From NCBI GenBank assembly GCA_008080745.1, contig SHMX01000001.1:480001-512000 (forward strand): 32,000 nt of DNA, read 5' to 3'. A model generated the notes under the pieces. That model was not told the origin of the DNA and ran no database searches. It saw only the letters and a program-made list of their open reading frames with translations. Source of the DNA: Candidatus Thorarchaeota archaeon. GTDB taxonomy: Archaea > Asgardarchaeota > Thorarchaeia > Thorarchaeales > Thorarchaeaceae. The translations under genes and the position numbers were made by a program. Positions 6,722 through 27,469 of this stretch are shown piece after piece. Numbering within the stretch: position 1 is the stretch's first letter; every line of letters starts with the position of its first letter.

Positions 6722-6794
6722 GCGGGATGATGATGTAGCAGGGAAGGTGAACGTCCATCAACCGTCGTGATCCTATAAACCGCAATCTGACCGC
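6722..6794 (+). ncRNA. Box C/D 2'-O-methylation guide sRNA
   Basis: Terminal stem GCGG/CCGC; box C ATGATGA 6727-6733; D' GTGA 6747-6750; C' GTGATCC 6767-6773; box D CTGA 6787-6790; two 13-nt guide spacers; K-turn geometry at both motifs. Confidence 0.88.
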
Positions 6795-24333: not shown

Positions 24334-26394
24334 ATGCAACTAACCAAGACGAAAGTACGACATAATCGAATTATACGGAGGTATTTTGCAATCTTCACCC
24401 TGATACTTCTACTTGCTATACCTATGTATACAGAGCCAGAAACAGCCATAAATAATGGTGAAATCCAACTAGAAAATCATTCCAAGTTTCAAGATGCTTC
24501 TGTGGGTAATCCTACATATGTAAATCTAACCCAGTATATTGAAGAGATCTACAATACAACATCCCAGACCAGAATCGAGGAATACACCCAGAGCCTTTCA
24601 GAAAATTATCCAGCAAGAATATGGAATATATCAATTAATGCAGCCTCAACCAACCTCCTTGCCGCTATGGCTTGGGTGAACACTACACTAAAGACAATCA
24701 CCGATGAGTCCCTAATATTCAAACAAATAGAGGGAGAGCCGTTCCTCTTTGCAAAGCAGGAGGGAAGTGATACCAATCCCAGAAAAGGAATAGTACTTAC
24801 GGGAATTCTAGACTCAGAGAATTATCCTGGTGCAAATAGTGTAGGGATAAGTGTCGCAATCATTTTGGAGCTAGCCAATATACTCCATGAATATTCTTTT
24901 GATTTTGATATTTATTACGTATTATCGATTGGTGGCAGATATGATTCTGATATCGATTATGGGAGTAGGGCCTTTGTCGAATGGATACAAAACAACAATA
25001 TTGACATTTTCACGACATTGGCATTTGACAAGATGCTCTTTAGTCGTTACGGATTCATTAACAGTAATAAGATAGCTCTTAGAACCAGCACAATATCAAA
25101 TTACCACTTTTCAGATTATATTCCCGACTTGTTAGTGCAGATCTCAAAGCAATATGGTTCAAACAAATTCATCAGGCTAATTGATAATGAAAAGGCAGAC
25201 CGTTCCACAGCATATGAGATGTGGAGAGTCAATCTTCCAGGAATTCATGTCACACAAGGATATTACCCAGATCCCAATAGCGATTCTATAGAAGACGTTT
25301 GGGACAATGACGAGTACAAATACGACAAACCAGTAGAGACAGTATCTGCAACTGCTGCTATGCTGGTACAACTTGGAATGATGAATGGAAATCATGCTGC
25401 AGCTCATTATATGAATAGCACTATTCCCACGGGTCAAAGCTCGAATCTCTTCTTTGTAGCAAGTGTCAACGATTTCGTCAATGTCACAATATCCTGGCCA
25501 GAAGGGACTCAATTACAGGCGAATATCATAAGGTCCTCAACATCAACATCGATGTATCAACGAATAGAAAACGACTCGCTCATCATTATGAAATATCGTT
25601 CTGTTCCACGAGGCGAATATGAGGTAGTCATAGAGAATCTTGGATCGCATAATGCTACCGTCAGTATGAATATTACATATTATGAGGACTTTGATGGTGA
25701 CTCTCTTCACGGAGGGACTGAGGCAGAACTGGGAACTAGCGTATATTTCGCGGACTCGGACTCGGACAATATCAATGACAATGTAGAAATCCAAATGGGA
25801 ACCTCACCACTCCTGGAGGATTCCGATAATGACGGAGCTAATGATTTTGAGGAGCTACAATATGGTAGCAATCCATATTTGAACGATACAGATGGTGACC
25901 AACTTCTAGATGGTTTTGAGATTGCTAGAAACATGGATCCAACAAACACAGATTCTGATGATGATGAAATTGGAGACTACGATGAGATATACACATATTT
26001 CACCGATCCAACACGGGAGGATTCCGATTTTGATGGATTAGAGGATGGTTTTGAAATCTCGGCGGGATTAGATCCGCTTTCGCCCGATTCTGATGGGGAC
26101 TCGCTTGGAGACCTCTTCGAAATCCTCAACCAAATAGATCCCACTAAAATGGATACTGATGGGGATGGCTGGTCCGATGCATATGAGGTTGAGTTCTGTC
26201 TATCACCAACAAATCCAGATACTGACGGAGATGGAATTCCAGATGGTATAGATTGGGACCCTCAAGAGCATTGGGTAAATGTAGTAGCCCCCATCGCTCT
26301 ACTATCAATAATTCTTCTTACAGGCATCTTTGGCTTTCTCAAACTGAGGCTTTACAAAAGACTTGATGCGGAGGAAAACGAAGCCACTGCATAA
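24334..26394 (+). CDS. Paralog of 22336-24330 with the same architecture
   Basis: IVLTGILDS..YPGAN...IILELANIL...YGSRAFV...AFDK...LPGI M28 scaffold; 9 repeats; C-terminal TM. Starts 3 nt after the upstream stop. Confidence 0.85.
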   Translation: MQLTKTKVRHNRIIRRYFAIFTLILLLAIPMYTEPETAINNGEIQLENHSKFQDASVGNPTYVNLTQYIEEIYNTTSQTRIEEYTQSLSENYPARIWNISINAASTNLLAAMAWVNTTLKTITDESLIFKQIEGEPFLFAKQEGSDTNPRKGIVLTGILDSENYPGANSVGISVAIILELANILHEYSFDFDIYYVLSIGGRYDSDIDYGSRAFVEWIQNNNIDIFTTLAFDKMLFSRYGFINSNKIALRTSTISNYHFSDYIPDLLVQISKQYGSNKFIRLIDNEKADRSTAYEMWRVNLPGIHVTQGYYPDPNSDSIEDVWDNDEYKYDKPVETVSATAAMLVQLGMMNGNHAAAHYMNSTIPTGQSSNLFFVASVNDFVNVTISWPEGTQLQANIIRSSTSTSMYQRIENDSLIIMKYRSVPRGEYEVVIENLGSHNATVSMNITYYEDFDGDSLHGGTEAELGTSVYFADSDSDNINDNVEIQMGTSPLLEDSDNDGANDFEELQYGSNPYLNDTDGDQLLDGFEIARNMDPTNTDSDDDEIGDYDEIYTYFTDPTREDSDFDGLEDGFEISAGLDPLSPDSDGDSLGDLFEILNQIDPTKMDTDGDGWSDAYEVEFCLSPTNPDTDGDGIPDGIDWDPQEHWVNVVAPIALLSIILLTGIFGFLKLRLYKRLDAEENEATA
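25687..26253 (+). repeat. Nine coding TSP3-like calcium-binding repeats
   Basis: DFDGDS, DSDSDN, DSDNDG, DTDGDQ, DSDDDE, DSDFDG, DSDGDS, DTDGDG, DTDGDG. Confidence 0.9.
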
Positions 26395-26424
26395 GCCAGT
26401 GGTACTTTTTCTTTGTGAAATAGA

Positions 26425-26491
26425 GCGGTTCAGTTACCCCTAAGGTCGTTCATCTTGTTCCGATCACATATAGGTAAGTCATCATTACCGC
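26425..26491 (-). ncRNA. Box C/D 2'-O-methylation guide sRNA
   Basis: Minus strand GCGGU-a-AUGAUGA-CUUACCUAUAU-GUGA-ucggaacaag-AUGAACG-ACCUUAGGGGUAA-CUGA-ACCGC: 5-bp terminal stem, perfect boxes C and D, 11- and 13-nt guides. Confidence 0.85.
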
Positions 26492-26635
26492 ATTACTTTG
26501 TATGATTGACTGCTATTTAGAATTGCTATTAGCCACTATCAAGATTGAATGCAAGTACAATATACGGGGTTTGCGGGCGTTGTGATCTTACACAGTCCTA
26601 TCACAATACTAATTTCTTGAGGTTTGATAGTGGTC

Positions 26636-27469
26636 ATGATGAAGACCATTACAGTGACTGACTTTTCTCTCAAAGATACTCTTGAGTGTGGGCAGACCTT
26701 TTGTTGGCTGAAAGAAGGTGAGGGATATGTAAATCCTGATATTGGTCAGGTCGTCTATGTTGAGCAACAAGGAAATGTGTTGCATTTTGACACTTCTGAT
26801 GGTGATGTGGATCTAAAAGGACTACTTGGTCTCTATGATCCAGTTGACGAAATTCGTGTTACCGTAAATAGAGATTCTTTGATGGAGAAGAGCATTGCAC
26901 ATATGCCAGGACTTCGTGTGGTAAGAGATCCGTTCTTCCCCTGTTTAATCGCATTTTTGTGTTCTATAAGGAAGAACATACCCACCATTCGACAAATGGT
27001 CCAATCAATTCGTGAAACATATGGTGAACCAATATCCTTCAGGGATATGACATATCACTGTATGCCAACTCCAGAACAATTGAGAGGAGTACCAGCAAAA
27101 GAACTCAGAAAACTAGGTCTAGGTTGGCGAGCCAAGTTCATTGAAGAAACCACTAGTACGATTGCGGAACGAGAGATTGAATTTAAGACCTTGCAAAAAA
27201 TGGAATATGAAGAGGCCCATCGCCAACTAAAGACCCTTCATGGGGTGGGCGATAAGGTTGCAGATTGTGTAAGCTTGTTCTCTTTGGGGTTTTTGGAAGC
27301 TTTTCCAATCGACATATGGATTGAACGAATAATTGAGGAACATTATAATATCTTCACAGAAACTGGTAACTCATACAAGAAGAAGTCCTCAGCCGCAAGA
27401 GAATATTTCGGGCCGTATGCAGGTTATGCTCAACAATACCTATTCCATTTTATGAGAACTGGATGCTAA
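26636..27469 (+). CDS. ogg1: 8-oxoguanine DNA glycosylase/AP lyase, OGG1-like HhH-GPD family
   Basis: TLECGQTF, GLRVVRDPF, LIAFLCS, LGLGWRAKFI, LHGVGDKVADCV.LFSL, AFPIDIWI, FGPYAGYAQQYLF. Start may be 26624, 26636 or 26639. Confidence 0.92.
   Translation: MMKTITVTDFSLKDTLECGQTFCWLKEGEGYVNPDIGQVVYVEQQGNVLHFDTSDGDVDLKGLLGLYDPVDEIRVTVNRDSLMEKSIAHMPGLRVVRDPFFPCLIAFLCSIRKNIPTIRQMVQSIRETYGEPISFRDMTYHCMPTPEQLRGVPAKELRKLGLGWRAKFIEETTSTIAEREIEFKTLQKMEYEEAHRQLKTLHGVGDKVADCVSLFSLGFLEAFPIDIWIERIIEEHYNIFTETGNSYKKKSSAAREYFGPYAGYAQQYLFHFMRTGC

Follow-up and report, generated by a model that had tools for sequence, protein, structure and literature searches.

The 67-nt element at positions 26425–26491 on the minus strand of the window (the whole stretch of 32,000 nucleotides analyzed here) is almost certainly a genuine, previously unannotated box C/D sRNA gene. 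Its most likely target is C2441 of the 23S rRNA, a cytidine beside the catalytic centre of the ribosome that it would mark for methylation, and its weak guide seems to be backed by a second grip from the central loop of the RNA.

A box C/D sRNA gene opposite ogg1

The initial annotation had proposed minus-strand boxes C, D′, C′ and D enclosed by a GCGGU/ACCGC stem with a bulge, and all of these elements are present in place. The gene and its surroundings are laid out as follows:

26425..26491, minus strand: box C/D sRNA gene, C2441-guide family of Thorarchaeota, 67 nt
26487..26491, minus strand: 5′ arm of the terminal stem, GCGGU, then a 3-nt k-turn bulge, AAU
26479..26485, minus strand: box C, AUGAUGA, 97% conserved
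26468..26478, minus strand: D′ guide region, 11 nt, drifting, with CC alone conserved
26464..26467, minus strand: box D′, GUGA, whose initial G is paired to the conserved C in C′
26454..26463, minus strand: D′-C′ loop, 10 nt, with GGAAC at 26461–26457; proposed extra base-pairing element
26447..26453, minus strand: box C′, AUGAACG, 93% conserved
26434..26446, minus strand: D guide, 13 nt, with +5 G at 26438 and +8 A at 26441
26430..26433, minus strand: box D, CUGA, seen in the sequence
26425..26429, minus strand: 3′ arm of the terminal stem, ACCGC, seen in the sequence
26513..26526, minus strand: promoter-like motif (BRE/TATA-like), with a similar A-rich motif in homologues; putative function
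26417..26424, minus strand: pyrimidine-rich tail, possible archaeal terminator
26624..27469, plus strand: ogg1-like glycosylase gene (OGG_N + HhH-GPD), divergent neighbor, synteny marker only

The terminal C and D boxes with their stem show the k-turn geometry of archaeal box C/D sRNAs, and the internal D′/C′ pair (GUGA/AUGAACG) is able to form a k-loop. Across homologues, the tandem GA is invariant, the stem II pair types are G:C, A:U and U:A, A:U, U·U, and the D′/C′ pairing covaries in the standard orientation. When both strands of the 3.16-Mb genome were scanned strictly for C/D boxes plus a stem, three matches resulted, two of which are the sRNAs of this window. An Rfam search with the sRNA gave no match, and its folding energy by itself does not reach significance (z −1.0). 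Fibrillarin and Nop5 are encoded side by side in the host, which also has two proteins of the L7Ae family, either of which may be L7Ae or L30e. Several small contigs of this assembly (C14, C15, C17, C18 and C19 of G000) have a G+C content of 62–65% compared to ∼41% elsewhere, which suggests contamination or mobile DNA.

The sRNA sits in a gap of 229 nt, with the end of a 686-aa gene at 26394 on one side and the start of the ogg1-like glycosylase gene at 26624 on the other. The sequence CTAAATAG at 26520–26513 (minus strand) lies 21 nt 5′ of the sRNA stem; it had been taken for a TATA-like element, and a similar A-rich motif recurs ∼22–30 nt before the stem in homologues, supporting a promoter at this place. 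Nearby, a hairpin followed by a T-run at window positions 26383–26403 (plus strand) overlaps the stop of the 686-aa gene and is terminator-like on both strands, and a conserved motif at 26598–26610 just 5′ of ogg1, present also in genomes that lack the sRNA, is probably part of the ogg1 promoter.

Conservation analysis with a covariance model revealed homologues in 45 of the 86 genomes of the family, spread over 9 of its 16 genera; none was found in the other 7 genera, and a broader model added no homologues. When the phylum was searched with a loose pattern, the matches numbered close to the control level. Exact matches to the 3′ half of the sRNA occur in 23 public genome records, of which the named ones are nearly all labelled Thorarchaeota. 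Synteny and box conservation, both suggested by the initial annotation as checks, bear out the gene. About three quarters of the copies keep the divergent position upstream of ogg1 on the opposite strand, and a related-locus search with ogg1 as the query found nothing. Genus-weighted column conservation is 97% for box C, 94% for D′, 93% for C′, 82% for the D guide, 62% for the D′-C′ loop (88–89% for its AA) and 50% for the D′ region; the boxes thus stand out at 93–97% against about 50% for flanking DNA (51% over 45 upstream and 52% over 25 downstream columns, both including the sRNA stem).

In a paralogue that shares scaffold and loop with this sRNA, the D guide is aimed at the 23S A-loop, with Um2555 as the predicted product (L039:1631–1706 in G015; also L078, L079, L080 and L084); in G015 the paralogue stands in tandem with the C2441-guide sRNA. 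Genus g1 carries A2555, and the paralogue was not found in this host.

The D guide is probably directed to 23S rRNA near the catalytic centre

We consider it very probable that the D guide binds 23S rRNA at 2437–2449 (E. coli numbering, checked against E. coli rrlA, whose own count is one above the standard here). In this duplex, 7 bp are followed by an A·A at +8 and then by 5 bp, of which two are G·U and three Watson-Crick, with the +5 G facing C2441 and the +8 A facing A2444 as a mismatch. By the N+5 rule, the sRNA would then be a likely guide for 2′-O-methylation of C2441. The duplex falls below the usual criterion of at least nine contiguous Watson-Crick pairs spanning +5 (PMC4644070). In an in vitro hemi-complex, mismatches beyond positions 3–5 were tolerated without loss of activity and one guide was enough (PMC1635284).

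Position +5 forms a Watson-Crick G:C2441 pair in every host having a 23S sequence; guide positions +2 to +6 are invariant, in one register for either guide length, and position +10 varies between C and U, facing a G. When each guide was compared with its own rRNA, 2437 came out as the top 23S site for 11 of the 13 hosts carrying this guide type and as the runner-up for the remaining two. A genus-averaged scan over both rRNAs likewise ranked 23S 2437–2449 first (Z −3.6), with 16S helix 7 as a fairly close second (Z −3.0) that scores at least equally in G024 and G014. The initial annotation had also aimed this guide at 23S rRNA but at the H69/H70 region. Host helix 69 reads CUCUUAAGGUAG, which would leave +1 to +3 unpaired and place a G·U wobble at +5, and we therefore rejected it in favor of 2437–2449.

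Near-identical guides of Sulfolobus sR128, Methanopyrus sR16 and Ignicoccus sR425 have been assigned to alignment position C2715 (PMC4644070, Additional file 1), which corresponds to E. coli 2441, so that methylation at this position is predicted in these archaeal relatives. Like them, the Thorarchaeota guide places +5 on the 2441 equivalent, and it ends in GGGGUA as is typical of the C2441-guide group. Trypanosomatids may methylate the equivalent cytidine, a point on which none of our arguments relies.

The target segment is a near-palindrome, and the host version folds on itself at −5.8 kcal/mol compared to −0.7 kcal/mol in E. coli. G2448 and A2444 make 23S 2437–2451 a near-perfect palindrome in all family genomes read, so that a non-native hairpin is possible. 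A perfect guide to such a target would self-dimerize (−20.1 kcal/mol), whereas five of six natural guides tested range from −9.7 to −13.5 kcal/mol. The +8 mismatch may, speculatively, be kept to lessen self-dimerization, a mere suggestion since the sixth natural guide reaches −19.4 kcal/mol. Moreover, introns resembling bulge-helix-bulge elements lie inside or beside the guide target in several 23S genes (near 2440 and 2450; L036 in G001, L133 in G008, L136 in G078 and L001 in G000), and the order of their splicing could affect guide access.

The D′ region reads as a decayed guide

Comparison of the homologues with their own rRNAs revealed no consistent conserved target site for the D′ guide, and we read this region as a decayed guide. 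In line with this, the initial annotation had been unable to assign it; its suggestion of a tRNA or mRNA target did not hold, as the best tRNA run scores 6–7 and the one 12-nt match to a coding region is about what is expected by chance. A match of the G014 D′ region near 2418 includes two G·U pairs, and we give it no weight. Pairing between the conserved CC and the D guide's GG is possible, though the trend is weak, and in most homologues the guide seed can be masked by the D′ region, each case being weak (median shuffle p 0.18).

A double-guide layout, with D and D′ directed to nearby sites, is thus not a property of the family and was found in the homologue of G013 alone. In G013, and likewise in four genomes belonging to another family of the phylum, the same D guide is combined with a D′ guide predicted for C2498, giving a putative 2441 + 2498 double-guide form like that of Methanopyrus sR16. 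Apart from G013 and the g10/g14 loop described below, no separate guide for C2498 was found to be conserved in the family. Three other families of the phylum also have canonical double-guide relatives in which the D guide is the same (L189, L190, L194–L197 and L201).

The D′-C′ loop matches helix 89 and changes with it

The C′-like AUGAACG box recognized by the initial annotation is well conserved, but the conserved D′-C′ loop adjoining it had been overlooked. Judging from complementarity, this loop probably pairs with helix 89 of the 23S rRNA. In this host, loop GGAAC is complementary to 23S GUUCC at the helix 89 tip (E. coli 2472–2476). In most homologues the loop has UAUGAAC or UGUGAAC, complementary to GUUCAUA at the same tip (2472–2478), and in genera g10 and g14 the loop reads GAGGAAG, complementary to 2495–2501.

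The loop changes along with the host rRNA, the combinations being UGAAC/GUUCA versus GGAAC/GUUCC. This host and its congener have 23S GUUCCUA and a loop with GGAAC, and G094 has 23S GUUCCUA and loop UAGGAAU. Opposite 2476, the loop base is U in all seven A2476 hosts of this loop type and G in all three C2476 hosts, and exchanging loop and rRNA partners costs 3–6 kcal/mol. The loop variants UGUGAAC and UAUGGAC still pair by means of G·U. Because genera g1 and g7 fall into one clade, the compensatory loop change may be a single event; overall, the compensatory changes represent one or two events in this family and one more in a second family (see below).

Scanned over both rRNAs, the top loop site is 2472–2478 in four genera (Z −3.8) and 2494–2503 in genera g10/g14 (Z −5.0), both at most 65 nt from C2441. 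In a shuffle test restricted to the 60 nt after the target (2452–2511), the loops gave a Fisher p of 7e-4 when the worst p per genus was used, with loop types grouped after inspection and genera that are not independent. The D′ region reached no p < 0.08 in any host in the same test. For this genome alone, the loop match of 5 bp has a p of 0.35, and the divergent homologues G022, G007 and G013 have loops without either motif. At the level of the family, the sRNA carries the sequence hallmark of snoRNAs with extra base-pairing, namely a conserved non-guide D′-C′ element complementary to nearby rRNA. The host 23S rRNA also contains a short insert directly after the target of the loop, at 2477.

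Loops of other C/D sRNAs

The other C/D sRNA of the window (6722–6794, plus strand) has a conserved D′-C′ loop core, UCAUCA, which is complementary to 16S UGAUGA ∼62 nt after the target of that sRNA in 12 of 13 hosts. In genus g4 the loop is UCGUCA, and the 16S sequence reads UGACGA in three of four genes, while the fourth would pair by G·U. UCAUCA could alternatively pair with the C box of the same RNA, but the change in g4 follows the rRNA rather than the box. In a third family, both guides are good (G2446 and ∼2510) and a variable hairpin forms the D′-C′ loop; in this host the family is represented by a double-guide C/D sRNA at C1:78061 (plus strand). The comparison of the three families fits loops that compensate for a lost guide.

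The host 16S gene L002 (C2:589938–592348 of G000) contains an ∼850-nt insertion that looks protein-coding, possibly for a homing endonuclease, and also carries two short intron-like inserts.

Proposed mechanism and alternatives

Our joint best model, to which we give somewhat better than even chances, is a single-guide C2441 sRNA with a second contact from the D′-C′ loop. The sRNA would be transcribed from its own promoter, and L7Ae, Nop5 and fibrillarin would assemble on the C/D k-turn and the C′/D′ k-loop, as is established for such RNPs. The D guide would pair with pre-23S rRNA at 2437–2449, and fibrillarin would 2′-O-methylate C2441 in helix 74, ten nucleotides before A2451. With a conserved central mismatch interrupting the guide duplex and the D′ guide decayed, the loop would provide the second contact at the helix 89 tip, 31–37 nt downstream, adding affinity or specificity without directing methylation, as does extra base-pairing of yeast snoRNAs. 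Support for this model comes from sequence, conservation, complementarity and matching sequence changes, from which we infer expression, RNP assembly, both pairings in vivo and the methyl group.

An unlikely alternative is that the D guide suffices and the loop is kept for structure or protein binding, its rRNA match being incidental. This would agree with a match of only 5–7 bp in most genera, which is not significant in this genome, and with covariation that possibly reflects one event. It would leave unexplained that two distinct loop types both fall on helix 89, that loop variants remain wobble-compatible, and that a second family has its own compensatory change.

Slightly less probable still is a chaperone which, like yeast snR190, does not methylate: the RNP on 2437–2449 and helix 89 would keep domain V open, for instance by countering the non-native hairpin of the palindromic segment. 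The conserved +8 mismatch, the possible masking of the guide seed by the D′ region and the stronger self-folding of the host segment compared to E. coli point in this direction, and methylation by snR190 in domain V was predicted yet undetected (PMC8536666). Against it, +2 to +6 including +5 form invariant Watson-Crick pairs in one register in both guide lengths, the boxes are near-canonical, and the palindrome is also present in genera lacking the sRNA.

It is improbable that the loop itself is a second methylation guide, with AUGA at the start of C′ serving as a D-like box and Cm2498 (g10/g14) or Um2473/2474 (elsewhere) as products. In g10, the loop and one flanking base do form a 10-bp duplex with +5 exactly on C2498, which is the D′ target of the canonical relatives. 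However, the standard-orientation D′/C′ covariation puts this segment in the closing loop, which by known RNP geometry is remote from the active site, and the register is off by one in this genome and in G015a.

Equally improbable is a main target elsewhere: 16S helix 7, second in the D guide ranking, can be paired only with bulges or mismatches and gains no support from the loop; helix 69 offers no Watson-Crick pair at +5; 16S A683 in helix 23, with which the host D′ guide pairs over 10 nt, is matched equally well by 6% of shuffles and is not conserved, the guides of G024 and others not covarying with their own 16S; and the 9-nt pairing of the D guide with the D′ guide of the C1:78061 sRNA (−13.2 kcal/mol), the one for G2446, is a consequence of the palindrome in the rRNA and does not account for +10 to +13.

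Comparison with known systems

The closest known counterpart in guide sequence, Sac-sR128 of Sulfolobus acidocaldarius, is predicted to target 23S C2715 and G2697 in alignment numbering (PMC4644070, Additional file 1). Its D guide ends in ACCCUGGGGUAA, compared to ACCUUAGGGGUAA in the Thorarchaeota sRNA, and the predicted site (E. coli 2441) is shared. Both are non-Watson-Crick at +8, with a true mismatch in the Thorarchaeota sRNA. Whereas Sac-sR128 has two working guides and a loop of few bases, the Thorarchaeota sRNA has a decayed D′ guide and a 10-nt loop with a second antisense element. The guide of the Thorarchaeota sRNA, with its A·A at +8, recurs in Pyrobaculum sR16, for which no prediction is listed.

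Methanopyrus kandleri sR16 (C2715 and C2772) and Ignicoccus sR425 (C2715 and C2698; PMC4644070) also share the D guide to the 2441 site, which does not imply common descent. The sR16 partner C2772 lies 57 nt from C2715, the same spacing as that of 2498 from 2441, so its second contact falls in the region met by the g10/g14 loop and by the G013 D′ guide. In sR16 and sR425 the second contact is a canonical D′ guide, whereas in Thorarchaeota the proposed second contact is located between D′ and C′ and in most genera has moved to the helix 89 tip.

In yeast and human snoRNAs such as snR70, conserved stretches of 4–11 nt that lie mostly between D′ and C′ are complementary to rRNA close to the target (van Nues et al. 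2011, PMC3116282); this extra base-pairing stimulates methylation and is enriched where the guide is short (PMC3116282). These snoRNAs are eukaryotic, assemble with Nop56/Nop58 and were tested in vivo, in contrast to the archaeal RNA of 67 nt, whose second contact we infer from sequence, and they touch the rRNA immediately adjacent to the target rather than 31–60 nt away. Like the Thorarchaeota sRNA, snR190 is a box C/D RNA in which more than one element pairs with domain V of the large subunit and an internal stem can mask the guide, but its long elements bind H73 and domain I without methylation, and we claim no sequence kinship (PMC8536666). Archaeal sRNA models take the D′-C′ loop as a variable spacer of any base (PMC6009581). 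We found no literature report of extra base-pairing in archaea, including Asgard archaea, in a search that covers subscription journals weakly.

Implications

With this sRNA, a guide group already known across archaea gains a new member in Thorarchaeota, one whose variant layout is similar to extra base-pairing in eukaryotes. Since the RNA class and the predicted site were already known, the gene alone is ordinary. Its interest rests on the loop, as two families of Asgard sRNAs share this layout and the rRNA has changed to match in both, which makes it testable whether extra base-pairing predates eukaryotes. Our results also suggest that some archaeal sRNAs listed with no target are weak guides rescued by a second contact. 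We consider it reasonably probable that C/D sRNAs of Thorarchaeota recurrently combine, in an asymmetric layout of eukaryotic style, one working guide, a decayed second one and a D′-C′ loop that grips the rRNA 30–60 nt away from the target. If so, extra base-pairing would exist in Asgard archaea with a homodimeric Nop5, having arisen before or in parallel to that of eukaryotic snoRNAs.
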